64,000 nt of DNA from contig JAUSCZ010000035.1 of the NCBI GenBank assembly GCA_030674475.1, positions 74,682 through 138,681 of the forward strand. The letters are read 5' to 3'. This document shows positions 14,015-60,440 of this stretch, in pieces. The DNA comes from Candidatus Omnitrophota bacterium. GTDB taxonomy: Bacteria > Omnitrophota > Gorgyraeia > Gygaellales > UBA12090. Under the pieces are notes generated by a model that did not search any database, had not been told where the DNA came from, and saw only the letters and a list, made by a program, of their open reading frames with translations. How positions within the stretch are numbered: the stretch's first letter is position 1; each line of letters opens with the position of its first letter. The position numbers were made by a program, and so were the translations under genes.

Positions 14015-16219
14015 TTGGTGTTGTCAATGCTGTCACTTATAATGTCACTCATAATCTTCTGCTTAGGATTAGGTTCGATTATCTCCCAGTTCGTATTTCT
14101 GCGTGAACTGCACACCACCTTCCAGGGAAATGAACTCTCCTTGAGCCTGATATTATTCTCCTGGCTATTTGGTTCCGGAATAGGCGGCCTCTTAGGATTT
14201 TTCTTTTCCTTAAGGAAAAGAAAATCTATCCATTCGAATTACCTCAAAAATTTATTAAGCCTCATCCTGATATTCTCCGCCTTTTGGCTTTTTATCAGCC
14301 TATTCCTCAGCCGCGGCTTAAATCTGTTTCTCTCTATCAGTCCTTTTGAAATACTCCAGCCCGGGCAAATCCTCTTGATTTCAACCATAGTCATAGTCCC
14401 TCAGACAATTACCGTGGGATTATCCTTTATCCTTATCTGCTCAATAATCCAGAATCCCATTAAGGCTTATCTTTTAGAGGCCCTGGGGGCGTTTTTCGCC
14501 GGCCTGTTAAGCCTGATCCTGATAAAATATTTTAACAACTGCCAAATCATCTGGACAATAGCAATAATTTATACCGCATCCGGCCTTCTGCTTTTAAATA
14601 AAAAACTCACATATTATCGGCTCCTGCTAATAATATGGGCCTCCTGCGCTATCTTATCTCTAGCCATGCTTAGCAAGATTGAAGAGAGCACCCAAAATCT
14701 GCGCTTTGGACCTCAAAAACTTATTTACTCTACAGATTCTATCTATGCCAATATCGCGATTGTCAAAAACGCTGAATACTCCTACAGCCTTTATGAAAAT
14801 GGTAAACTCTCTTTCTCAACTGAAGACAGCGAATCAATTGAAGAATGGGCCCATATGCTTTTACTCAGCCACGCCACGCCGCGAAAGATTTTGCTTATCG
14901 GAGGAGGCGTCTCCGGAGTCATCTCCGAAATACTCAAACATCCAATTAAATCTATAGACTATCTGGAGCCGGATAAAAAGCTGATAGAATCTGTCCTAAA
15001 ACATATCCCCCAAAGCGCCTTTTATGGCCTTAGAGATAAAAAAGTAACTATATACAATCAAGACGCCCGGCCTTTCATCAAAGCTGCTTTTACTAAATAC
15101 GACTTAATTATTCTAAATTTAGGCGGCCCCTCCAGCTTGCAGTTAAACCGCTTCTACACCCAGGAGTTCTTTGAAAAGATAAAGAATATTTTAAGCCAAG
15201 AAGGCAGATTCTGTTTTTCTTTTGAATCCAAGGAAGATATCCTCGCCGGACAACTCCTGAAATATAACTCCTGTCTCTATAAAAGCGCTAAATCGGTATT
15301 CCCTTATCTTCAACTTATTCCCGGCGAACGCCTGACCCTCATCGGCTCAAGCGAAAATATCCCTAAAATAAACCCCGAAGAATTAGCCGCGAGATTTAAG
15401 GAAAGAGACATCCAAAGCAAATACTTTACGCCATATCATATCAAGGCAAAACTATTCCGGCAGGAGTATATCCAAAAAAGGCTGGAGGAAAATTTTAACC
15501 TTGCCAGCATAAACCGCGATTATTATCCTTCAGGTTTTTTCTATTATTTAGGCCTGCGGGGAAAACAAAGCTGGTTGAATTTCAACCGGATGTGGGAACT
15601 CTCCGGAAAAATAAAAATGATTTATGGCTTTGGCTGTATGGAAAGCCAAACCATTGCCTTGCTGGCTTACTGGATTGCCACGATGCTAATCCTTGGGGTT
15701 ATTGGACGCAAGAATATCGTTAATTTGTCCGTCTTCTCCAGCGGCTTCTATGGTATCGCCTTAGCAATAATTATCAGCCTGCTCTTTCAGATAAATCTGG
15801 GCTTTCTTTATTACCGCCTGGGAATGATTGTGGCTAATTTTATGTTAGGGCTTTCCTTAGGAGGGATTTTGTTTATATACCTGCGGAAAACAAAGCTATC
15901 CTGGGAAAGGGCGTTATTTTTATCGGAAATAGCCTTAGGAATTATTTCTCTACTGGCCGCGTTTATCTTAAAAGATAACCAACTCACTTATTTCCTGCTT
16001 ACCTTACTGGCGGGAATTATAATCGGCTTTGAATTCGGAATATTCTATAGCCGGAAAAAGACAATTACTATTTATATTTTAGATTTGTCCGGGGCCTGTC
16101 TGGGGAGCCTGTTGACCGGCTTAATCTTTGTTCCGGTATTAGGCATATATAACACCTGTTTACTTATTTCATCCGCCAAGCTTATCACTGCTTTTTTTCT
16201 GAGAATACCAAAGCGCTGA
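14015..16219 (+). CDS. multi-pass membrane protein fused to spermidine synthase-like (PABS) domain
   Basis: Many N- and C-terminal TM helices surround a central LLIGGGVSGV...IDYLEPD aminopropyltransferase-like Rossmann motif. Confidence 0.65.
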   Translation: MVLSMLSLIMSLIIFCLGLGSIISQFVFLRELHTTFQGNELSLSLILFSWLFGSGIGGLLGFFFSLRKRKSIHSNYLKNLLSLILIFSAFWLFISLFLSRGLNLFLSISPFEILQPGQILLISTIVIVPQTITVGLSFILICSIIQNPIKAYLLEALGAFFAGLLSLILIKYFNNCQIIWTIAIIYTASGLLLLNKKLTYYRLLLIIWASCAILSLAMLSKIEESTQNLRFGPQKLIYSTDSIYANIAIVKNAEYSYSLYENGKLSFSTEDSESIEEWAHMLLLSHATPRKILLIGGGVSGVISEILKHPIKSIDYLEPDKKLIESVLKHIPQSAFYGLRDKKVTIYNQDARPFIKAAFTKYDLIILNLGGPSSLQLNRFYTQEFFEKIKNILSQEGRFCFSFESKEDILAGQLLKYNSCLYKSAKSVFPYLQLIPGERLTLIGSSENIPKINPEELAARFKERDIQSKYFTPYHIKAKLFRQEYIQKRLEENFNLASINRDYYPSGFFYYLGLRGKQSWLNFNRMWELSGKIKMIYGFGCMESQTIALLAYWIATMLILGVIGRKNIVNLSVFSSGFYGIALAIIISLLFQINLGFLYYRLGMIVANFMLGLSLGGILFIYLRKTKLSWERALFLSEIALGIISLLAAFILKDNQLTYFLLTLLAGIIIGFEFGIFYSRKKTITIYILDLSGACLGSLLTGLIFVPVLGIYNTCLLISSAKLITAFFLRIPKR

Positions 16220-17864
16220 AAGTATATTTTTCGGTTTTCGCGTCCTTCCAGGAGTCAGCAGGCAAGCCTGCCTTATGAGCGCATAAATTAGAAAGGAACT
16301 CCTCCTTATTCCAGCCGGTCTCTTCAGCCACCTGAGGCAAAAATACCCCCTGGCTCCACCCCCGTTTGATCAACAAACCGTGCGTGCCTAACTGAAACTC
16401 AGCCACATCATCAATCTTTTTTAAAGGCGAGAGGACCGAAATTTCAATCTCAATATCCTTAAGCTCATCCTTGGTTACCGGCTCAAACCGGGGATCTCCG
16501 GTTGCCGACTCTATGGCCATATCCCTGATGGTTTCAAAAAGAGGCTTCTGGCCGATAATATTACCGATACAGCCTTTTAGCTTACCTTGCTTATGGATAG
16601 TTACAAAGGCACCGTTAATAGCCTTTAGCTGAGGATCATCTTCGCTAAAATCTAATTTTTTCCCGCTGGTTACATATTCCTGAATAGTCTTACGGGCAAT
16701 CTCCAGTAATCGCGCTTTCTGCGTATCATTCAACATAACTGTTTCTCCTGTCTTATCCTTATTAATTAAAGCTGATAAATACCCCACAGTCCACACCCCT
16801 TTTATCTTTTTACCGGAAACCTTAGCGGAATTAGTATGCCCCAAAAACTTTATTTGATTATAGCCTAAGCTTTGCGCGGTAAGTATCGCGCTGACCACCG
16901 GCAATCCCCCGCACATCTGGATTGAACCGTCTTTTAACTTCGCGTAAATATCCTGGGCAGACCCCGTTAGAAGCCTCTTACCGCTTTCAGATTGCTCCCC
17001 AGCTTCTAACGGGGCAGGCATCTTCCCTAAATAGGACAAAGTCAGCTTATCTACTCTCTCGGTTTCCTGGTAGTCATAACTGTGGCAAAGGTCCGTGGAA
17101 GCAATCAGCAACACATCTGAACGGCCCGCGATGGCTTTATTTAATATATCCGCCAAAACATTTAAACCGTGAAGGTCCGCGTCTCCAATCAAAATGGGAA
17201 CTATCTTAAAATCATCCAGGGTCTTTTGTAAGAAAGGAAGCTGAACCTCAATGGAATGTTCTTTTTCAAAAGCCTGAGGGATAAAGCTAATATTTTGGGA
17301 AGGAGAAATTATTTTTTGCGTAAAATCAGAGTCTACTTCTAGGTCTCCCAGGGGGGTTTGGAACTTACCGGATGGATATACTGAGACTCCCTTAAAATAA
17401 TACTGGTGACTGGGCCCCAGGAGGACCACGGTTTTATAAGGACGGCCTTTAATTAACTTATAGCCCAAGGCGGCGGTCGGCCCGGAGAAATCATAGCCGG
17501 CATGGGGAGAAATCAAACAAAATATTTCGCCTGTGGTGAGCGGTGGGTTGGCCGCGTTAAGCAGGTTTTCAACTTTATGGCTAAGCTCATCTTTATCCGC
17601 GGGATAAAACTGCCCGGCCACATTCGGTTTTTTTATCTCCTCGCCAAAGCTTAGGACATTAAAGCCAAAAAGCGCTCCCCCAAAAAAAAGGAAAAAAACA
17701 ATTGCTGTCCCTACTTTTCTCTTTGAAAAAAAGGAACTTCCCCCTTTCGTAAAGGGGGATGGAGGGGGATTTTCTAGGTTAGGGGAAATTTGGGAGCATT
17801 TACACAATGCACTAAGCCCAGATTCCGGCGATTGTTTCCTGACAAAACTTGCAATGCCCATCAA
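16185..17864 (-). CDS. AmmeMemoRadiSam system fusion protein: Memo1-like (protein B) plus AMMECR1 (protein A) domains, with N-terminal hydrophobic segment; start codon uncertain
   Basis: The Memo-like core is ISPHAGYDFSG...LCHSYDY. The AMMECR1 core is GAFVTIHKQGKLKGCIGNI...DPRF. A radical SAM partner is adjacent. Confidence 0.7.
   Translation of the reverse strand: MMGIASFVRKQSPESGLSALCKCSQISPNLENPPPSPFTKGGSSFFSKRKVGTAIVFFLFFGGALFGFNVLSFGEEIKKPNVAGQFYPADKDELSHKVENLLNAANPPLTTGEIFCLISPHAGYDFSGPTAALGYKLIKGRPYKTVVLLGPSHQYYFKGVSVYPSGKFQTPLGDLEVDSDFTQKIISPSQNISFIPQAFEKEHSIEVQLPFLQKTLDDFKIVPILIGDADLHGLNVLADILNKAIAGRSDVLLIASTDLCHSYDYQETERVDKLTLSYLGKMPAPLEAGEQSESGKRLLTGSAQDIYAKLKDGSIQMCGGLPVVSAILTAQSLGYNQIKFLGHTNSAKVSGKKIKGVWTVGYLSALINKDKTGETVMLNDTQKARLLEIARKTIQEYVTSGKKLDFSEDDPQLKAINGAFVTIHKQGKLKGCIGNIIGQKPLFETIRDMAIESATGDPRFEPVTKDELKDIEIEISVLSPLKKIDDVAEFQLGTHGLLIKRGWSQGVFLPQVAEETGWNKEEFLSNLCAHKAGLPADSWKDAKTEKYTFSALVFSEKKQ
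16961..17019. repeat. in-frame intragenic palindromic element, family B copy 1 (ACCCCGTTAGAAGCCTCTT...CTTCTAACGGGGCAGGC)
   Basis: About 85% identical to 35410-35470. Encodes MPAPLEAGEQSESGKRLLTGS in the middle of the Memo-AMMECR1 protein. Confidence 0.75.
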
Positions 17865-19839: not shown

Positions 19840-20253
19840 CTAAGGACAACTCACCGCAGAACAACTTGCACAACCAGCGCCAGTCTTACTGGTCGTGCCG
19901 TTCTCATACATGTTTATAGTATAGTTGGTAGTGCCACAGGGATTTTTTTCCGAATTTCTTAGCGCCCGAGCTACAACAGTATTCGCAGACTCATCAACTA
20001 CCGTATAGGTAAAATAGGTGCCATTGGTAGTATTGTCAATATCTAAATTATCAAAACTATTAGTATAATTCCCGTTTTCTAAATAATAGCGCGTCTGGGC
20101 GCCGCGGATAGCGGCTAAGTTGGTTAGGGCTTCGCTCTGGCGGGAGCGCTCCACGGTTTTGGTATACTGGGGTATGGCCAGGGCGGACAGGATGCCAATG
20201 ATCACCACCACTACCACCAGTTCGATTATATTAAAGCCGGAATTTTTATTCAT
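19840..20253 (-). CDS. type IV pilin / pseudopilin
   Basis: GFNIIELVVVVVIIGILSALAIPQY prepilin N-terminus. Confidence 0.75.
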   Translation of the reverse strand: MNKNSGFNIIELVVVVVIIGILSALAIPQYTKTVERSRQSEALTNLAAIRGAQTRYYLENGNYTNSFDNLDIDNTTNGTYFTYTVVDESANTVVARALRNSEKNPCGTTNYTINMYENGTTSKTGAGCASCSAVSCP

Positions 20254-20257
20254 TTTT

Positions 20258-20327
20258 ACCCCTCCCCGCCTCCCCTTGCTAAGGGGAGGATTTCTTGTCG
20301 TAGGGGCGGGTTCGAACCCGCCCCTAC
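20258..20327. repeat. composite intergenic element: SD-sequestering hairpin module (CCCCTCCCCGCCTCCCCTTGCTAAGGGGAGGATTTCTT) plus REP palindrome GTAGGGGCGGGTTCGAACCCGCCCCTAC
   Basis: Fills the whole 76-nt intergenic gap and ends 4 nt from the pilin ATG. Copies occur at 37752-37821, 38456-38495 and 59380-59424, with related arms at 26623-26760. Confidence 0.8.
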
Positions 20328-20329
20328 TA

Positions 20330-26611: not shown

Positions 26612-26622
26612 AGTCTTTACCC

Positions 26623-26760
26623 GTAGGGGCGGGTTCGAACCCGCCCCTACCCCCGATAAGGGGAGGATTTCTTTCCGCCTGCCCCGCCAGCGGCGGTGGC
26701 CTCCCCCTGATAAAGGAAGTTTTCTTATCCCCTCCTTTACAAGGAGGGGTAGGGGAGGTA
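26623..26760. repeat. composite repeat: REP palindrome GTAGGGGCGGGTTCGAACCCGCCCCTAC followed by several CCCC/GGGGAGG-type hairpins
   Basis: Read directly from the sequence. Sits in the intergenic region between the PilM-like stop (26766) and the PilO-like start (26611). Confidence 0.75.
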
Positions 26761-33317: not shown

Positions 33318-35054
33318 TTATTCCTTTATCTTTACAACATTTAAAGACAGGTATTCTACATTTACTTCAAAATCATCATAAAGCACACCGCAATATTCCA
33401 CTTTTGGAAGGAAATAATAAAGCCTTGCCTCGTAAGTCTTGCCCGGAGCTAAAACAATAGAGGGAACATAGGTCGTGCCAAGTATTGAGAATGTCGCGGA
33501 CAGACTCCTCACATTCATCATGCTTTTATGTACCGGCACACCTGATCCTTTCTCTGTAATTCCAACCAGGGTATAAAAATTTATTCCTTCATCAGTAATG
33601 TCGTGGTTAATTAATACCTGCCAGATAATATTCAAAGCTTCACCGGTCTTAGCTACAAATTCATAGGTAACCCCTTCATGTGTAGTGTCGGGGTAGGTAC
33701 CTTTAATTTCTCTAAACAGCCCTGGGTTATCAACCAAACACGAAGTAACATCACTGGCATATCCGGCACATTGGCCAGCAGTGTATGCAAGGCTATCACA
33801 ACCCGGACAGGCAGTCCTCTCCTCGCACTTACTTTCAGTACAATTTTTATCGAAACCTGGGTCTCTTGTTGTTTCCCCATCTTCAAGCATTACACCAGAG
33901 CACACATTCTCTTCGCAGCAGGACTTACTGTCCTCGCATCTCTCATAATTATTGGCATAAGCGCTACAAGCACTAATGCAAGTCTTAAACGCATCTTTGA
34001 GCTTGTAAGTATAGGATGCCACTTTCACCTTGGCGATGCATTCTACATATCCGTTACAAGTACAAGTATCGCAGGTAGTAACATAAGTTGTACTGCAAGA
34101 AGGAGGCGGCGGAGTCCAGGGAGGAGGCGGCGGAGTCCAAGAAGTACAAGTAGTTACAGGAACACTAACACAGTTACAACTATACGTGCAAGAGTCAGAC
34201 ACATTATCTACTATATTACTGCAAGAAGTAGCACTACTACTATTGCAATCCCCAGCCGGATCCCGAGAAGGACAACTATTGTCTAAGGTACAAGAAGAAC
34301 ATCCGACTGGTGTGCGAGATGTTCCGTCATTTTCCCAGACATAGGTTACATCATAATAAGAAGTCAAACCATCGCATCTGGGCGGGCCCGAATTCTCGGA
34401 ACAGGCCTGAAAAATAGGGCTGAGGCTTGGCCCGCAGGTTGCCGGACAACTCCAGATCCTATACCCATCAATATCGGTTCCTGTTACGGTACAGTCATCA
34501 GAGCAGTTTGGCGTCAGCTCATCGCTATCCGCGTCCGGACAACCTCGTCTCTGCAGGCCATAAGGAGAACCTGATGAAACTGAGCCAGAACTACAGGTAA
34601 GATTTTCACAATAAGTAGAATCGTCGCTTGATCTCGAACCGCCAGTACCTGTTGTGCCTACACCACATTCAGTTTGCGCGCAATCATCAACCTGAAAAGG
34701 AGGCTCAGTGCAATTATAATTAGCCAACGTATCATGATCACCTGAACTGCACTTAATTGCTTTGGGAAAAGAAGCAGTGGTCAAACAGCAATCCGGACAT
34801 TCCTTCTTAAGCTCAACACATTTATTACATTCTGAAACACTGCTAAGTGCGGTCGAACAATCTCCTCCGGTTAACAGATCTTTTCCGTCTAACTGGCTAA
34901 GAATTATTGGGTCAGTCCCGTAATCCTTGCTCTCTGTATCAGAAGTATAATTAGACGGCAGGTATTTTATGCGCTTATCCTTAGGATAGGCTGGGCTATT
35001 AAAGAAAGCCAGAAATAACAAGAGTAGAATTAAGGCCTTTTTATTTTTTACCAT
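33318..35054 (-). CDS. large secreted cysteine/threonine/serine-rich protein with PPPPWTPPPP motif; candidate pilus-tip adhesin
   Basis: Signal peptide, then a ~400-aa segment carrying dozens of Cys (CSSC, CTCNGYVEC, CCEENVC). The operon context with pseudopilins supports a pilus-associated role. Confidence 0.5.
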   Translation of the reverse strand: MVKNKKALILLLLFLAFFNSPAYPKDKRIKYLPSNYTSDTESKDYGTDPIILSQLDGKDLLTGGDCSTALSSVSECNKCVELKKECPDCCLTTASFPKAIKCSSGDHDTLANYNCTEPPFQVDDCAQTECGVGTTGTGGSRSSDDSTYCENLTCSSGSVSSGSPYGLQRRGCPDADSDELTPNCSDDCTVTGTDIDGYRIWSCPATCGPSLSPIFQACSENSGPPRCDGLTSYYDVTYVWENDGTSRTPVGCSSCTLDNSCPSRDPAGDCNSSSATSCSNIVDNVSDSCTYSCNCVSVPVTTCTSWTPPPPPWTPPPPSCSTTYVTTCDTCTCNGYVECIAKVKVASYTYKLKDAFKTCISACSAYANNYERCEDSKSCCEENVCSGVMLEDGETTRDPGFDKNCTESKCEERTACPGCDSLAYTAGQCAGYASDVTSCLVDNPGLFREIKGTYPDTTHEGVTYEFVAKTGEALNIIWQVLINHDITDEGINFYTLVGITEKGSGVPVHKSMMNVRSLSATFSILGTTYVPSIVLAPGKTYEARLYYFLPKVEYCGVLYDDFEVNVEYLSLNVVKIKE

Positions 35055-35473
35055 TGGTCACATCCAGTTCTATTAATAAGGCCGCCTTGGTTAGTAATAG
35101 TCATATTCCTACCACTACAGGCCAAACCGGAAACCGCGCGGGTAGCCGTGGCAGTAAAGCTTGGGCTGGTGGTGGCGTTAATAGAATAAGTAAAACTGTC
35201 TCCTTCTAAATCAATCCCTAAATTCTCAGTATCATTAGTATACTCTCCCTCGTTCAAATAATACCTCTGCTGGGCAGAGTAGATTAATTGCAGGTTAGCC
35301 TCGGCTTCTTTGGCCTTATTTTTCTCTGAAGATCGGCTAAAATTACCCATATTCAGGCTAACCAAAATCCCGATAATTACCAAAACCACCAGCAACTCAA
35401 TCATAGTAAACCCCGTTAGAAGCCTCTTGCCTCTTACAGGTTGCTCATTAACTTCTAACGGGGCAGGCCCCAT
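35048..35473 (-). CDS. type IV pilin with 21-aa leader (ORF track starts at TTG 35485; ATG at 35473 has an AGGAGA SD upstream)
   Basis: ...GKRLLTG|FTMIELLVVLVIIGILVS prepilin cleavage/methylation site. Confidence 0.7.
   Translation of the reverse strand: MGPAPLEVNEQPVRGKRLLTGFTMIELLVVLVIIGILVSLNMGNFSRSSEKNKAKEAEANLQLIYSAQQRYYLNEGEYTNDTENLGIDLEGDSFTYSINATTSPSFTATATRAVSGLACSGRNMTITNQGGLINRTGCDQW
35410..35470. repeat. family B palindromic element copy 2, encoding the pilin leader peptide
   Basis: About 85% identical to 16961-17019. The CCCCGTTAGAAG / CTTCTAACGGGG arms are an inverted repeat. Confidence 0.75.
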
Positions 35474-36091
35474 TTTCACTTGCAAATCTCCTTATAAGTG
35501 CGATAAATCGCACCGCTACGCAACATGAGATAAATCGCCTACCTGCGGTAAGCAGGCACCGCTACGCGACATGAGTGACCCACGGTAGGCGGAGGTAAAA
35601 CCCGCGCCCTTATCACTCCCAAGGAGCAACTGCATCTCAGAGTATCGGTATAACCAACTCAAGAACAGACTTTTAAAAACTCCTGCTATAATAAAAAACC
35701 AAGCTCTACTTTTTAAGGGTAGCTTGGCTTCGCACTCTAAGAATAAAACCGAGTGCTCTTTTCTTGTTTGAGCTTAACAACTTGGCTTTATTCTGGTTTT
35801 AAAGTTAAGTTGTCGGTGCGCCAGGCTACCTTATCCAGAGGGCTTTCCCCTCCTTTACTTCTGGTAAGACTTAGGTCCTTTAGCTTTGCGCCCCGCGGTT
35901 TCCCGCGGTTTGCCCCGGCCTTAATTTCCTGTGCCGGCCTACCGGTTTCCTGTTTGCGCGGTAGATTTTCGGATGTGGTAATTAAAGTATACACCATAAA
36001 AGAACTAATTACAAGGGTAAAACCGCCTTTTCAGGAAAGCGCTTTCTTGGGAGGAATTTTATCGGTTGAACTCTTTGGTTATCGCTTAGCT

Positions 36092-36949
36092 TTACCTTTC
36101 CCGCAGGAAATTCTCCTTTATGAAATCAATCAGGTATTCGTAAAGCGGCTGGGAGGTTTTTATAAATCCCTCTATCTGCTGCCAGCGGATATCCAGATAT
36201 TCATGGGTAATCATATTCCTTAACCCCGCGAACCTGCCCAGCTTCTCGGCAGTGTTTTTATCAAAATCTTTCAGCAAAGACAGCGATTTCAGGATCTCTT
36301 TATATTTCTCCGGCAGGCGGATTTTCTCTGAGGCCAGAACAATCTCGGCGATGTCAATCGAACAAAGCGCGATGCCTTCCGCCCAATGCTCAACATTTCT
36401 TTTTTTGCCGCGATCAGACTCATAAAGGGATTGATTAAGCTCCCGGAATTCCTCGTAAGATTTTAATTCTTCTTCCAGGAAATCAATCAAAACCTCCAAC
36501 TGTTCTTTATCTTCCAGGCTTAATGATTTTGACCTTTCCCGAATCCGCCTATAGTCTTGAATAAATTCTTTAAAATCCGCGGACGCGGAATTAATGGTTA
36601 GGAAGAATCGCCAATACAGGGAACGGTCTTTTATAAATATGGGCAGGCCGGTCTTTAGAACCTTGGAAGCCATCGTGCTTGCTGCCCGGTTTAAAACCAG
36701 AAGGTCAACTTCTCTATCCAGAAGATTTTCCAGTTCCCGCCATATCCGGTCTTCTTCGGGATAAAAGGTGTCTTCTTCCCATTCAAGAGCCCTGCCCGCC
36801 GGATTAAAATAAACCGCGATATCCATATCAGAATCCGGCAGGTGCTGGCCTTTGGCAAAAGAGCCGAAAATAAAGGCCATAGAGATATTTTTTTGGTTTT
36901 TGAAATACTCTTTTAACTCTTGGATCTTGACCTTTACCGGCGTTATCAT
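36092..36949 (-). CDS. nucleotidyltransferase (MNT, Pol-beta superfamily) fused to HEPN (DUF86-like) domain
   Basis: N-terminal GSFAKG...DSDMDIAV nucleotidyltransferase motif, with a C-terminal RNMITHEY (Rx4H HEPN motif). Confidence 0.65.
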   Translation of the reverse strand: MITPVKVKIQELKEYFKNQKNISMAFIFGSFAKGQHLPDSDMDIAVYFNPAGRALEWEEDTFYPEEDRIWRELENLLDREVDLLVLNRAASTMASKVLKTGLPIFIKDRSLYWRFFLTINSASADFKEFIQDYRRIRERSKSLSLEDKEQLEVLIDFLEEELKSYEEFRELNQSLYESDRGKKRNVEHWAEGIALCSIDIAEIVLASEKIRLPEKYKEILKSLSLLKDFDKNTAEKLGRFAGLRNMITHEYLDIRWQQIEGFIKTSQPLYEYLIDFIKENFLRER

Positions 36950-37345: not shown

Positions 37346-37747
37346 TTAATCCCGGTCGGTGGCGATATTTACCTGTTCAACCCCTAAATCCCGGGCCATA
37401 TCCCAGACCTCAACCACCCGGCCCAGCCTTGCTCCCTGATCCGCCATAATCAAAACCGGGCGTTTGGTTTTCTTGGCCTCATTAAGAACAATCTTAATCT
37501 CTTTGGCAGTTAAAACCTTTTTATCCAAATAAATGACATTTTCCCGGCTGATAGTAATAATAATGGTGTCTCCTTCGCTGGCCTCCGCGCTTACCGCCTT
37601 GGGTAGATTCACCTTGATTCCCGACTGCACGATAAAACTTGAGGTCAGCATAAAAAATATCAAAAGCTGAAACACCATATCTATCAAAGGGGTAATATCA
37701 ATCTGGCGCAGGCCATGCTCCAATTCCATATGTCTTTTAAAGCGCAT
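37346..37747 (-). CDS. exbD: biopolymer transport protein ExbD/TolR
   Basis: Single TM segment (IDITPLIDMVFQLLIFFMLTS) plus a periplasmic domain; 133 aa. Confidence 0.85.
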   Translation of the reverse strand: MRFKRHMELEHGLRQIDITPLIDMVFQLLIFFMLTSSFIVQSGIKVNLPKAVSAEASEGDTIIITISRENVIYLDKKVLTAKEIKIVLNEAKKTKRPVLIMADQGARLGRVVEVWDMARDLGVEQVNIATDRD

Positions 37748-37751
37748 TTTT

Positions 37752-37821
37752 ACCCCTCCCCGCCTCCCTTTGTTAAGGGGAGGATTTCTCCCCGTAGGGG
37801 CGGGTTCGAACCCGCCCCTAC
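37752..37821. repeat. composite intergenic element (SD-hairpin module plus REP palindrome) between exbB stop and exbD start
   Basis: ACCCCTCCCCGCCTCCCTTTGTTAAGGGGAGGATTTCTCCCCGTAGGGGCGGGTTCGAACCCGCCCCTAC. The exbB stop codon TAG lies inside the palindrome. Confidence 0.8.
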
Positions 37822-38450
37822 TCCGTAAGGAAATTGACTAATTCGGTTGCCGCTTTTTCCATCTCTAAAATCACGGAGTTAACCCGGCCTACCAGGTAAT
37901 TATAAGTGATAAAAGCCGGTATGGCCACCACCAGGCCTGCCACCGTGGTTAAAAGCGCCTCCCAAATTCCCCCGGCCAGGTCTCCCGGGCTGACCGGGTG
38001 GCTGGCGGTAGACTTGACTTGAATAGTATTAAAACAAGTAACCATTCCGGTAACCGTGCCTAAAAGCCCTAAAAGAGGGGCAATGTGGGCAATGGTGGCC
38101 AAAACGTTTAAATTCTTTTCTAATATCGGTATCTCATACAAAGAGGCGTCTTCAATAGCCTCCTTAATATCCTGACGGCTCCTGCCATGCTTTAGTATCC
38201 CGGCCTTTAAAATCTGGCCTACCGGGCTTAAGGTTTTATCACAGTCATAAATTGCCTCTTTTATCTTCTGTTGTTTTAACTTCTCCAATACATTCCTCAG
38301 GAAATAAGTAGAATTTATTTTTATCTTTCTCAGATACCACAATTTCTCTATAGTTATTGCCAGGGCCCATATTGAACTGATAAGTATGGGCCACATAACC
38401 GGCCCGCCAGCCAAAAAAAGCTTCCAAAAATTCATCTGCCAGATATTCAT
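37818..38450 (-). CDS. exbB: MotA/TolQ/ExbB proton-channel family protein
   Basis: Three TM helices with a conserved ExbB core (GLLGTVTGMV). Confidence 0.85.
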   Translation of the reverse strand: MNIWQMNFWKLFLAGGPVMWPILISSIWALAITIEKLWYLRKIKINSTYFLRNVLEKLKQQKIKEAIYDCDKTLSPVGQILKAGILKHGRSRQDIKEAIEDASLYEIPILEKNLNVLATIAHIAPLLGLLGTVTGMVTCFNTIQVKSTASHPVSPGDLAGGIWEALLTTVAGLVVAIPAFITYNYLVGRVNSVILEMEKAATELVNFLTE

Positions 38451-38455
38451 TTTCT

Positions 38456-38495
38456 TACCCCTCCCCGCCTCCCCTTGTTAAGGGGAGGATTTTTT
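38456..38495. repeat. SD-hairpin module copy (CCCCTCCCCGCCTCCCCTTGTTAAGGGGAGGATTTTTT) directly upstream of exbB ATG
   Basis: Read from the sequence; this copy has no REP palindrome attached. Confidence 0.8.
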
Positions 38496-38499
38496 GCCT

Positions 38500-38640
38500 C
38501 CAACAAGTTATTAAACTCTAAATCCTAAATTCTAAACTCGAAACCCTAAACAAATCCCAAACCCAAAACATTATATTTTTAGTTTTGAGTTTATGATTTT
38601 GCCTGCCTGCCGGCAGGCAGGAGTTTGTTTAGGATTTAGG
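38500..38640. terminator. large inverted-repeat region (CTAAATCCTAAA... / ...TTTAGGATTTAGGG arms around the perfect palindrome GCCTGCCTGCCGGCAGGCAGG)
   Basis: Read from the sequence; lies downstream of the TPR gene stop. Confidence 0.55.
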
Positions 38641-58243: not shown

Positions 58244-59379
58244 TAGTTATATTTCGCGTTTATCCTGATATATTCCGGGGTCAGGTCTGAAGTGTAAACT
58301 ACGGCCTTACCTCTGCCAAGTCTTAAATCTATCTTGACTATTATATCCTTTTTCCGGAAAGAATCACCCTCTATTTTTATTTTTTCTCTTACCTCTACCC
58401 CGGATGCCCCCACCGCCGCCACTATCCTTCCCCAGTTAGCGCCTCCGCCGTAAACAGCGGTCTTGAAAAGATTGGAATTGGCCACGGCCAAAGCCGCTTT
58501 TTTAGCCTGCGTATTATCCTTGGCTCCGGATACCTGAATAGTTATAAACTTGCTGGCTCCTTCAGCATCCAAAATAATCATCTTGGCTAAACCCAGGCAA
58601 ATTTCACTTAAGGCAGTTTTAAATTTAGAAAAATTACGCGTGCCTAAACAGACTTTCTTGTTTTCCGCTAACCCGTTAGCCAAAATAATCACGCTGTCAT
58701 TAGTGCTCATACATCCGTCAATAGTAATCATATTAAAAGAATATTCAACTGCCTGCTTCAAGGCCTCTTTTAATGCCGAATACTCGATCAAGACATCCGT
58801 AGTGATAAAGCAAAGCATCGTAGCCATATCCGGAGCAATCATTCCCGCGCCCTTGGCAATTGCCCCGATAGTTACTTTTTTTCCGCCTATCTCTAACTCC
58901 CGCGCTAAGGCCTTGGGCTTAGTATCGGTAGTCATTATAGCCTGGGCTGTCTTATTACCGCTGCTTCTATCTAAAGAGCCAACCAAAGACGGCAAGGCCT
59001 TCTTTATCTTGGAGAAATCAAGCGGACGGCCAATAATTCCGGTTGAGGCAACCAGCACCATTTTTTTATCTATTCCCAACAACTCCGCGCTAAGGCAGGT
59101 GGTGTTCTTGGCCGTTTCCATTCCCGGCTTTCCGGTATAGCAATTAGCATTCCCACTGTTGACTATTATAGCTTGGGCTTTTTTTGATTTCAGATATTCC
59201 CGGCAAAGCTCAACCGGAGCCGCGGCAAACTTATTTTTGGTAAACATACCACAGGCGGATGCCGGGACATCGGAATATATCAAAGCCAAATCCAGGCCGC
59301 TGGATTTCTTTATCCCCGCCTCTATTGCCTGAGATCTAAACCCCTTAGCCAGGGTTATAGCGTTTTTATACTCTTTCAT
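58243..59379 (-). CDS. argJ: bifunctional ornithine acetyltransferase / N-acetylglutamate synthase
   Basis: ATMLCFITTD autoproteolytic site region. Confidence 0.85.
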   Translation of the reverse strand: MKEYKNAITLAKGFRSQAIEAGIKKSSGLDLALIYSDVPASACGMFTKNKFAAAPVELCREYLKSKKAQAIIVNSGNANCYTGKPGMETAKNTTCLSAELLGIDKKMVLVASTGIIGRPLDFSKIKKALPSLVGSLDRSSGNKTAQAIMTTDTKPKALARELEIGGKKVTIGAIAKGAGMIAPDMATMLCFITTDVLIEYSALKEALKQAVEYSFNMITIDGCMSTNDSVIILANGLAENKKVCLGTRNFSKFKTALSEICLGLAKMIILDAEGASKFITIQVSGAKDNTQAKKAALAVANSNLFKTAVYGGGANWGRIVAAVGASGVEVREKIKIEGDSFRKKDIIVKIDLRLGRGKAVVYTSDLTPEYIRINAKYN

Positions 59380-60440
59380 ACCCCTCCCCGCCTCCCCTTG
59401 TTAAGGGGAAGATTTCTTAACAGGCCCTCGGTTTCTTTAAAGCCGCAGAGCAAATTCATATTCTGCACTGCTTGAGCCGAAGCGCCCTTAAGCAAATTAT
59501 CTATCGCGGAAATTATAATAATTGTTTTCTGATCCGTACTAATCTTAACGCCGATATCGCAAAAGCTGGTTCCCTGAACATCCCTCAAACAAGGAAATTC
59601 GCCTTCGTTTTTTATCCTCACCAAAGGCTTATCCTTATAGTATTTTTTATAAATATTTATTAACTGGTGGCTGGTGGCTGGTGGCTGATGGCTGACTTTC
59701 ATATATATCGTTTCCAAAATTCCCCTTTCTATGGGCAAAAGATGGGGAACAAAGGTAACCTTTATCTTTTTCTTGGCCAGCTTAGACAGCTCCTGCTCTA
59801 TTTCAGGCGTATGCTGATGGGCATCAACCTTATAGGCCTTGAAATTGTCCTTTAGTTCGAGCCAGAAAGGATCATCCGCCGGCTTTCTGCCGGCTCCGCT
59901 GTAACCGCTTTTGGCATCAATAATAATCTCTCGCGGGCTAAGTTTTTCTTTTAATAAGGGAGCCAGGGCCAAAATCGCCGCGGTGGGGTAACATCCGGGA
60001 TTAGCTATAAAATCCGCCTTTTCTATCTTTAAACCGTTAATCTCCGGCAAGCCATAAATTGCCTTTTTAATATTCGCCTTATCCTTATGCTTGACCTTAT
60101 ACCAGGCTTCATAAAGCTCCCAGTCATTCAGCCGGTAATCCGCGCTTAAATCAATAACCTTTTTCCCTCCCCTTAGCAGGACGGGAACCACATCCATAGA
60201 GTTGGTATGCGGCAAGGCCAGGAAAAACAAATCCGCGGATTGGACGGCCTTAGTTAGATTAAGATTATCGCAATACAGATCCAACCGGCCCTTAAATTGA
60301 GGAAAAATTTCAGCTATCGGAACCGGCTTATCCAGCCTGGCCGTGAGATAACTTATCTTTACCTGGGGATGTCTTAACAAAATCCTGATTAACTCTTCCC
60401 CGGTATATCCCCTTACCCCGATTATTCCTACCCTCACCAT
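59376..60440 (-). CDS. argC: N-acetyl-gamma-glutamyl-phosphate reductase
   Basis: Semialdehyde dehydrogenase family (GVRGYTG, active-site Cys region). Carries two embedded repeat tracts: a (CTGGTGG)n run at 59664-59694 and the SD-hairpin module at 59380-59424. Confidence 0.85.
   Translation of the reverse strand: MVRVGIIGVRGYTGEELIRILLRHPQVKISYLTARLDKPVPIAEIFPQFKGRLDLYCDNLNLTKAVQSADLFFLALPHTNSMDVVPVLLRGGKKVIDLSADYRLNDWELYEAWYKVKHKDKANIKKAIYGLPEINGLKIEKADFIANPGCYPTAAILALAPLLKEKLSPREIIIDAKSGYSGAGRKPADDPFWLELKDNFKAYKVDAHQHTPEIEQELSKLAKKKIKVTFVPHLLPIERGILETIYMKVSHQPPATSHQLINIYKKYYKDKPLVRIKNEGEFPCLRDVQGTSFCDIGVKISTDQKTIIIISAIDNLLKGASAQAVQNMNLLCGFKETEGLLRNLPLNKGRRGGV
59380..59424. repeat. SD-hairpin module copy embedded in the 3' end of argC, supplying the argC C-terminus (LLRNLPLNKGRRGGV*) and the RBS/start of argJ
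   Basis: ACCCCTCCCCGCCTCCCCTTGTTAAGGGGAAGATTTCTTAACAGG. The argC TGA stop overlaps the argJ ATG (ATGA). Confidence 0.8.

Follow-up and report, generated by a model that had tools for sequence, protein, structure and literature searches.

A small palindromic element probably inserted into an existing prepilin gene of Candidatus Omnitrophota

Introduction

Can a mobile element provide a pilin with its signal sequence? This question is raised by a type IV pilin-like gene (open reading frame (ORF) 35048..35485, minus strand) of a Candidatus Omnitrophota bacterium. The gene lies in a stretch of 64,000 nt, here called the window (assembly GCA_030674475.1, contig JAUSCZ010000035.1, positions 74,682 to 138,681). 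A repeated element is found at the 5' end of this gene and again inside a gene for a Memo-AMMECR1 protein. The original prediction for this DNA had assigned the start codon, the ribosome-binding site (RBS) and the leader peptide of the pilin to the element. Our analysis points to a different history. A small, non-autonomous palindromic element, similar to a MITE (a miniature transposable element with inverted repeats), was probably inserted into a prepilin gene which was already complete. Loci are cited with the prefix L and proteins with the prefix P; in motifs an arrow marks the prepilin cleavage site or the point of insertion.

The element in the window

The repeat search of the window paired positions 16961-17019 with 35410-35468 (family D9, 59 nt, 86% identity). 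The repeated element in the pilin and Memo-AMMECR1 genes is real, as had been predicted. Both copies lie on the minus strand inside ORFs and are read in an equal frame. With up to three mismatches the pilin copy matches only itself in the window, and 0 matches are expected in 100 shuffles. The core of the element comprises 53 nt: perfect inverted ends of 12 nt, CCCCGTTAGAAG and CTTCTAACGGGG, which both window copies carry as terminal inverted repeats, and a 29-nt interior. A hairpin with a 15-pair stem is predicted, 12 pairs of which are formed by the inverted ends; the whole 101-nt stretch folds with -32.2 kcal/mol (z = -3.1). In the subfamily of the window, common to locus L027 from Riflebacteria, the interior is unstructured.

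At the pilin gene the core and a 4-nt flank form an insert of 57 nt, i.e. 19 codons, with the translation PAPLEVNEQPVRGKRLLTG (CCT GCC CCG TTA GAA GTT AAT GAG CAA CCT GTA AGA GGC AAG AGG CTT CTA ACG GGG). It directly precedes TTT ACT ATG ATT GAG TTG on the gene strand. The core itself is translated to (A)PLEVNEQPVRGKRLLTG, the final codon GGG being Gly at position -1. The peptide encoded by the Memo-AMMECR1 copy is PAPLEAGEQSESGKRLLTG. The relevant features are:

35487..35492, minus strand: native Shine-Dalgarno sequence AGGAGA of the pilin gene, 7 nt 5' of GTG 35479, outside the repeat and conserved in orthologs
35468..35479, minus strand: native start and 4-residue leader GTG-AAA-ATG-GGG (M-K-M-G), as in element-free orthologs
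35464..35467, minus strand: 4-nt flank CCTG (gene strand), where the target copy TTTA is expected
35411..35463, minus strand: element core, pilin copy, CCCCGTTAGAAG + 29-nt interior + CTTCTAACGGGG, seen in D9, in the hairpin and as a 57-column gap in alignment A1
35407..35410, minus strand: target 4-mer TTTA, the Phe+1 codon and the first base of Thr+2
35048..35410, minus strand: mature type IV pilin-like protein FTMIELLVV... including the stop codon, recognized by Pfam, orthologs 71-91% identical
16962..17014, minus strand: element core, second copy, in-frame in the Memo domain of the Memo-AMMECR1 (AmmeMemoRadiSam B/A) protein

The D9 repeat stops at 35468 of the plus strand and thus begins with GCCTG on the gene strand. 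Hence, the ATG at 35471-35473 and the RBS are both located outside the shared DNA.

The pilin gene with and without the element

The start region of the pilin gene reads AGGAGA (35492-35487) TTTGCAA GTG (35479-35477) AAA ATG (35473-35471) GGG on the gene strand. AGGAGA is located 7 nt from GTG 35479 and 13 nt from ATG 35473, which is codon 3 of the native leader. The pilin was compared with 20 close homologues of 52-91% identity. Short leaders precede FTMIELL in seven orthologous proteins, namely MKTG in four of them and MKAG, VKAG and MAEKTG in one each; one further homologue shows ...EKTG↓ after a long called extension. In P0007 (locus L001) the element PAPLE...LLTG is absent, and the gene reads ...AAG ATG GGA↓TTT, i.e. 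...KMG↓F.

Empty sites were also found in the DNA. The start region of L002 and L007, both element-free, is (A/T)GGAGATTTG(T/C)AA-GTG-AAR, followed by xxx-GGR↓TTT ACT ATG. The empty locus L002 shares AGGAGATTTG(T/C)AAGTGAAR with L005, and one-base variants occur in L007 (TGGAGA) and L008. The junction is GTG AAA ACG GGG↓TTT ACT ATG in L007 and GTG AAG GCA GGA↓TTT ACT ATG in L002. Hence, L002 and L007 read RBS-GTG-AAR-xxx-GGR↓TTTACTATG, and the window, L006 and L005 gain 57 nt at exactly that point. Alignment A1 contains one gap of 57 columns, precisely between the Gly codon and TTT. As the upstream region of L001 is divergent and contains a degenerate CTTCTAAC, the empty-site argument rests on L002 and L007. 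In L001 (positions 1-70), 5' of KMG↓F, CAGCTTCTAACCTGTTACGGG resembles a degenerate right end, and this site is possibly not naive.

The pilin locus is syntenic among the relatives. A DUF2582-like gene and a toxin-antitoxin pair are located upstream, the leader contains a riboswitch, and the pilin stop codon is overlapped by a large Cys-rich ORF. This conserved downstream gene is overlapped by the pilin gene by 7 nt.

Three alleles exist at this locus in related organisms: the short element, a longer relative with the ends CCCCGTTAGAGAT, and a tandem of both. The leader of P0004 is that of the window. P0008 and P0010 carry the longer relative at the same junction. P0001, P0002, P0003 and P0005 contain both elements in tandem, MKMG-PAPLEIYGKSLF...DLSLMG-PAPLEVNEQPVRGKRLLTG↓FTMIELL, where P0005 starts with VRMG. 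The longer relative was observed in tandem with the short element in L005 (175-741, P0003) and alone in L008 (256-720, P0010). In L005 its core has 122 nt, the ends CCCCGTTAGAGAT/ATCTCTAACGGGG and an AT-rich interior. The longer element of L008 contains an in-frame TGA. The gene was called there from an element-internal ATG, which has no evident Shine-Dalgarno sequence, because the TGA blocks the native start.

The conserved RBS, GTG start and 4-residue leaders of the element-free orthologs indicate that the ancestral pilin already possessed an RBS, a GTG start, a leader and the G↓F site. The insertion into this already complete prepilin gene thus appears recent and lineage-specific. The original prediction was correct in that G↓FTMIELLVV directly follows the element and that AGGAGA is located upstream (35487-35492). 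Its derivation of the RBS from the element does not hold, since AGGAGA is outside the repeat and conserved in element-free orthologs. The same applies to the start codon: ATG 35471-35473 is not part of the repeat, and the conserved start is GTG 35477-35479, as in L002 and L007. Of the 23 leader residues, 19 are translated from the element, Gly-1 and the K-R pair among them, and the first four (MKMG) are native. With short 4-residue leaders in the element-free orthologs, the long leader proves to be a later insertion.

Leader peptide and processing

The following course of events is proposed. The element would have landed just behind the Gly-1 codon, at the TTTA 4-mer that spans Phe+1 and Thr+2. 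The reading frame would be kept by the 3n+2 core and the 4 nt added by insertion, and the inverted ends would be read free of stops as ..P-L-E.. and ..L-L-T-G. The right end, ..CTA ACG GGG, would together with the next bases TTT A rebuild the prepilin-peptidase site T-G↓F-T. The gene's own AGGAGA and GTG (35479) would still serve for initiation. The product would have a leader of 23 residues, MKMG and 19 element-encoded ones, where the native leader had 4. Cleavage after the element-encoded Gly would free an unchanged mature pilin, which would explain the tolerance of the insertion and the repeated hits in many phyla.

The features of a prepilin signal are present in ...LLTG↓FTMIELLVVLVIIGILVSL, with Gly-1, Phe+1, Glu+5 and about 20 hydrophobic residues. 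The last codon GGG of the insert supplies the new Gly-1, and the K-R pair of the element-encoded leader is located at -6/-5. Pfam N_methyl (PF07963) matches residues 23-41 with 21.8 bits (cut-off 21.2); Pilin_GH and ComP_DUS are also above their cut-offs. The element-bearing allele persists in orthologs with 79-91% identity (P0001-P0005). Gly-1 is the main requirement of prepilin peptidases, which cut off the 15-30-residue leaders of type IVb pilins. From the conserved initiation region, the intact G-1/F+1/E+5 motif with N_methyl and the persistence of the allele, we infer translation of the 23-residue leader from GTG 35479 and its removal by a cut after the element-encoded Gly.

The copy in the Memo-AMMECR1 gene

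The second copy is located in-frame within the Memo domain of the Memo-AMMECR1 ORF (16185..17864, minus strand). A protein with 100% identity, from a Candidatus Omnitrophota metagenome-assembled genome (MAG), is named AmmeMemoRadiSam system protein B. In an alignment of 51 Memo sequences the 19-residue insert is confined to P0024-27 and P0029. It is absent from P0028 and P0030-33 (75-82% identity), from the fragment P0071 (83%) and from all 39 more distant homologues. The empty sites read LEKM↓SAQDIY and variants. Since all empty-site orthologs keep ...LEKM↓, the Met preceding the copy is native. The Met of both peptides, formerly ascribed to the element, thus belongs to each gene itself (LEKM↓ in Memo; AAG ATG GGA↓TTT in P0007 for the pilin).

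The DNA of the empty site in L132 is ATG TCC GCC, i.e. ATG↓TCCG↓CC. The filled site reads ATG CCTG [core] TCTG CC in the window and in L134 alike, corresponding to a 4-nt duplication of TCYG with one mismatch. The flanks of this copy are:

17015..17018, minus strand: CCTG (gene strand), 5' side, one base off TCTG and equal to the flank of the pilin copy
16958..16961, minus strand: TCTG (gene strand), 3' target-site copy, from the empty site L132 versus the filled sites of the window and L134

This copy appears to be an ordinary in-frame insertion of the element found in the pilin gene. Empty and filled sites among close relatives, as known for MITEs, were detected at both the pilin and the Memo locus.

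In P0034 the segment LEKMPAPLEAYEKL was observed where empty sites show LEKM-SPEDIYEKL and filled sites the insert of 19 residues. It includes a short PAPL remnant and could be what an internal deletion has left of the element, as a remnant or footprint.

Distribution and structure of the element family

The pattern CCCCGTTAGAAG-N20-50-CTTCTAACGGGG was searched in one genome per species and gave at least 118 genomic stretches. The family statistics cover 119 listed copies, for which the pattern itself required both 12-nt ends. Hosts among the matches listed are Patescibacteria/Saccharibacteria, Pirellulales and other Planctomycetota, Omnitrophota, Elusimicrobiota, Nitrospirota, Riflebacteria and a few Proteobacteria. 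Only 2 matches were obtained in a scan of viral contigs, hence there is no sign of phages as main carriers. Full-text search of the literature for the end sequences gave one unrelated mouse paper only, and the literature on MITEs combined with pilin, leader peptide or the relevant phyla contained nothing on the present family.

Identical 4-mers flank 70 of 117 listed copies on both sides, versus 6.8 expected with random pairing and 0-1 in shifted controls. The consensus of the flanking 4-mer is YNNR, with G preferred at -5, just before the 4-mer; TAAA is most common (13 copies), followed by TTGA, TTTA and TCAA (9 each). A target-site duplication of fixed length is present family-wide. For the window copies it is partial, with 3/4 matching positions at the Memo gene (CCTG/TCTG) and 1/4 at the pilin gene (CCTG/TTTA).

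The family members are 44-74 nt long. A length of 2 mod 3 was found for 83/119 listed copies (binomial p = 6e-16). A core of 3n+2 nt and a 4-nt duplication add up to a multiple of three, and the reading frame is therefore kept. Half (50%) of the listed copies with 3n+2 length are located inside long ORFs versus 0-7% of those with other lengths. As read from the sequence, the ends carry a stop codon in one frame each, and the 3n+2 length leaves two frames open. Both were found in host proteins, PLE...LLTG and PVRS...SNGV, in unrelated proteins. Members of the family are also intergenic and occur on both strands.

The interiors are wholly divergent between the listed copies despite identical ends. 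Most of them consist of two GC-rich hairpins, the sequences of which vary while the pairing is kept; two hairpins were predicted in 64/119 listed copies versus 26% of shuffles. Taken together, the family is best read as an in-frame MITE resembling the Rickettsia palindromic elements (RPEs), unusually small, frame-preserving and distributed across phyla.

A 44-nt member was observed in-frame (PVRSKTFKKKASNGV / PVRSKTSKGKASNGV) at an equal position in L058 (1155-1198) and L065 (4723-4766), from MAGs labelled Omnitrophota and Planctomycetia. The host sequence is an apparent zinc-finger region of NAD-dependent DNA ligase. This copy appears to be an old insertion retained within an essential protein.

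Prepilin cleavage junctions as insertion sites

Seven of the 119 listed copies sit directly before [FY]-T-x-x-E and a hydrophobic helix, with the native ...K/R-G-F/Y-T just upstream of the element. They belong to L022 and L041 (Planctomycetota, mutual orthologs), two genes in L036 and one in L061 (Saccharibacteria), L074 (Sedimentisphaerales) and L099 (taxon unrecorded). Phycisphaerae and Pirellulales are among the taxa with such junctions. The number of independent occupations of prepilin G↓F-T junctions (GGN-TTTA-C) is put at seven or eight. Tandem elements before G↓FT were found in L027/L129 (Riflebacteria) and L127/L128; in the latter pair TTTA is present at all three junctions. In total, 27 prepilin-like junctions exist in the 811 kb of scanned loci, for which random placement predicts far less than one hit.

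The DNA of the junction, GGN-TTT-ACN, fits the target of the family: G, then T-N-N-A, then C/T. Either orientation of the element yields G-F-T-P-L-E....L-L-T-G↓F-T, by which the cleavage motif is rebuilt and the mature protein stays the same. The prepilin cleavage junction is best read as a tolerated hot spot of insertion. Target preference and survivorship probably both contribute to its occupancy, because the extra peptide would leave with the leader.

Five pilin-like G↓F or G↓L junctions are present in the window, and one of them, that of the pilin at 35410, is occupied. The four unoccupied junctions belong to pilin or pseudopilin-like genes (19456, 21140, 31407 and 32243, minus strand), and three of them read GGN↓TTTAC, the preferred target of the element.

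The unusual CCTG flank

Both window copies carry CCTG on the 5' side, where TTTA (pilin) and TCTG (Memo) are expected. In L005, CTTG and CCTG are found at the two junctions 5' of the elements. Flanks differing in at least two positions are found for 30/117 listed copies; 35/47 listed copies with mismatched flanks keep the YNNR form on both sides, and CCTG/CAGG recurs among the mismatched flanks (L017, L034, L076). A metagenome scan specific for the subfamily gave 3 loci with canonical TTTA junctions, which are too few to derive the origin of the CCTG flank.

Two explanations were considered. The unit of this lineage may comprise 57 nt (CCTG and core) and insert without duplication, which fits the data. 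Alternatively, transposition may proceed by a cut-and-paste mechanism like that of piggyBac and IS1380, where the element takes along a 4-nt overhang of the donor, which becomes fixed on one side once replication has taken place. The overhang explanation is preferred because it covers the family-wide flank pattern, too. Chemistry of the piggyBac/IS1380 type is put forward as a hypothesis, as neither a transposase nor an autonomous copy was found in the examined loci.

Alternative explanations

Several points weigh against a mobile element that left a functional prepilin behind. No transposase was found in the examined loci (~0.8 Mb), and a search of these loci for an autonomous parent gave no end pairs 400-4000 nt apart with matching flanks; the mobility thus rests on sequence signatures. 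Identical 12-nt ends across distant phyla are unusual for a MITE. The left flank of the pilin copy is CCTG and not TTTA, i.e. the target-site duplication is not clean. A 15-pair RNA hairpin begins 13 nt past the start codon and could lower expression, and the in-frame TGA in the longer element of L008 indicates that such insertions are not always harmless. Finally, translation of the long leader from GTG 35479 and its cleavage are predictions.

The insertion could have crippled the pilin, with the leader unprocessed or translation blocked by the hairpin, and the gene would then drift towards a pseudogene. The stable hairpin just 3' of the start codon, the in-frame stop inside the element of the L008 allele and the four other pilin-like genes of the window, which could compensate, would agree with such a loss. 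However, it is unlikely: the pilin ORF is intact, the element-bearing allele persists at 79-91% protein identity (P0001-P0005), and the G-1/F+1/E+5 motif and hydrophobic helix are unaltered. Leaders of 15-30 residues are generally known to be accepted by prepilin peptidases in type IVb pilins, and similar insertions exist in intact prepilin genes of several phyla.

It is very improbable that the element brought start codon, RBS context and the whole leader and in this way created the prepilin signal. MGPAPLE...LLTG↓F can indeed be read from ATG 35473, a similar M-PAPLE...LLTG-S is found in the Memo protein, and the gene call in L008 does begin at an ATG inside the longer element. But the shared DNA stops short of the ATG, which is native, as is the Met, in the pilin and Memo genes, element-free orthologs with leaders of 4 residues keep the RBS and the GTG start, and the 13 nt from AGGAGA to ATG 35473 contrast with only 7 nt to GTG 35479. 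The comparison argues against a mobile element as the source of a signal sequence complete with start and RBS.

That the 19 residues are a functional peptide module under protein-level selection, acquired by convergence or domain shuffling, is hardly credible: both copies are in-frame in an equal frame and the peptide is nearly invariant across the element-bearing pilin orthologs, but the similarity is that of a DNA palindrome with inverted ends and 4-nt flanking repeats, whose interiors differ completely while the ends are identical and whose members are intergenic, on both strands and in two frames (PLE..LLTG, PVRS..SNGV) of unrelated proteins.

Surroundings of the pilin gene

A riboswitch for cyclic di-GMP (c-di-GMP) was identified upstream of the pilin gene, on the same strand and above the gathering score, as a full-length model match:

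35812..35924, minus strand: c-di-GMP-I riboswitch aptamer in the 5' leader of the pilin transcript (RF01051, 47 bits versus gathering 35, E = 5e-8)

The aptamer lies about 330 nt 5' of the pilin start and outside the element. The same aptamer sequence is found 5' of the orthologous pilins in L002, L003, L004 and L008, with a stronger terminator stem there. In the window a 7-bp stem with a U6 tract (CCAAGCU...AGCUUGG UUUUUUAUU) was observed at about 35690-35735 on the strand of the aptamer, a terminator-like structure and candidate expression platform; it is absent from the scan list because its loop exceeds the limit of the scan. These findings suggest c-di-GMP control of the pilin operon in Omnitrophota.

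A hairpin GTGCGATAAATCGCAC is located at 35499-35514, directly 5' of the RBS. Its pairing is conserved in orthologs through compensatory changes, as in GCGCGATTTATCGCGC of L002, L007 and L008. A duplicated motif, GCACCGCTACGC(A/G)ACATGAG, is present in the 5' leader of the window (35510-35529 / 35557-35576). Hairpin and motif may be part of the riboswitch expression platform or another small repeat.

A nucleotidyltransferase (Polbeta/NTP_transf_2) fused to a HepT-like RNase domain, a module of toxin-antitoxin type, is encoded at 36092-36949 (minus strand), between the DUF2582-like gene and the riboswitch. At this place the orthologous locus L002 contains a pair of HicA and HicB genes instead. 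Further repeats of the window are located at 20251-20328, 26620-26679, 37745-37822, 38450-38527 and 59373-59450, mostly at gene ends. They include a perfect 28-nt palindrome GTAGGGGCGGGTTCGAACCCGCCCCTAC in 3 copies and an adjoining CCCCGCCTCCCCTTGTTAAGGGGAGGATTT hairpin in 4-5 copies, and presumably correspond to family A of the original prediction.

Significance

A very small palindromic element with identical ends is thus described from candidate phyla and Planctomycetota, with statistical signatures of selection for frame-preserving insertion. It repeatedly occupies one position of prepilins where the added residues would be cut off anyway, a concrete example of selfish DNA persisting cheaply inside coding sequence that looks essential. 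For annotation, prepilin leaders that are unusually long or otherwise odd can, in Omnitrophota, Patescibacteria and Planctomycetota, be element insertions, and mis-called starts such as MGPAPLE..., MVNKNEYY... and MIELLVV... can reflect them likewise. The repeat family is now defined by its ends, flanks and length rule and can be searched for a transposase.

A more far-reaching explanation is tentative and, in our view, rather doubtful: a tiny, translation-compatible cut-and-paste family across phyla, for which the prepilin junction is a safe harbour and whose flanks record a mechanism like that of piggyBac/IS1380. If true, the element would be shaped by its 3n+2 length, the 4-nt duplication and ends without stops in two frames out of three on each strand. 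Insertion at GGN↓TTTA↓C would rebuild G↓F-T, and the prepilin peptidase of the host would strip the element peptide from each molecule after translation, a clean-up whose function resembles that of an intein. Chimeric flanks such as CCTG/TTTA would then record the 4-nt overhang of the donor.

Comparison with known systems

Three known types of repeats and motifs were rejected as identities of the element. Repetitive extragenic palindromic (REP) sequences and bacterial interspersed mosaic elements (BIMEs) are extragenic, without target duplication, and have a conserved GTAG-type head that is recognized by a REP-associated tyrosine transposase (RAYT); the copies described here lie inside ORFs and have 4-nt flanking repeats. 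An integron attC site, suggested by GTTAGAA/TTCTAAC in the element, does not apply, as the order of the half-sites is wrong, the copies are intragenic and direct flanks of 4 nt are present. Known ribozymes and other known RNA motifs gave no match, with no Rfam family at gathering or permissive thresholds; in Rfam 15 the best hit was E = 1.3 for the canonical copy of L119, and no match overlapped the window copy, permissive thresholds included.

RPEs are small palindromic repeats of about 150 bp which insert in-frame in ORFs and are translated (Ogata et al. 2000, as summarised in the MITE review PMC10969869). The present element shares with them the in-frame location of a small palindrome in unrelated genes, translation without destruction of the host ORF, and presence or absence among close relatives. 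In contrast to the RPEs of Rickettsia with ~150 bp, it has 44-74 nt, 12-nt inverted ends, a 4-nt flanking duplication and hosts in many phyla, as well as a recurrent site at the prepilin cleavage junction. The likeness is one of behaviour alone, limited to in-frame insertion into ORFs; the host here is Candidatus Omnitrophota and the size 53 nt.

Bacterial MITEs such as Correia/NEMIS, ERIC and Nezha likewise have terminal inverted repeats and a target-site duplication, occur many times in a genome, code for nothing themselves and are now and then fused in-frame to host ORFs (PMC10969869). A typical MITE is restricted to one genus or family and has a traceable parent insertion sequence, whereas the ends of the present family are identical in different phyla, and the examined loci contained no parent. 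Also unusual for MITEs are the strong bias towards 3n+2 lengths and the compensatory changes in a structured interior of two hairpins.

The piggyBac transposon uses TTAA as target, and its ends start with CCC. As in IS1380 and piggyBac, a 4-bp target duplication is formed here, and the ends open C-rich beside a target of the T..A type. A carried 4-nt donor overhang, as for piggyBac, would explain flanks that differ and are nevertheless well-formed, CCTG/TTTA included. Unlike in these systems, the target is the looser YNNR, and no transposase was found in the examined loci; the link is a lead from the flank pattern. IS1380 was used as prokaryotic outgroup for piggyBac (PMC10813416).

Finally, the pilin resembles type IVb and other long-leader prepilins in its leader of the ~15-30 residue class, the Gly end and the hydrophobic N-terminal helix with Glu+5. 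Unlike in type IVb pilins, its long leader is no trait of the family but appears to be a recent secondary insertion in a type IVa-like gene, the orthologs of which have leaders of 4 residues.

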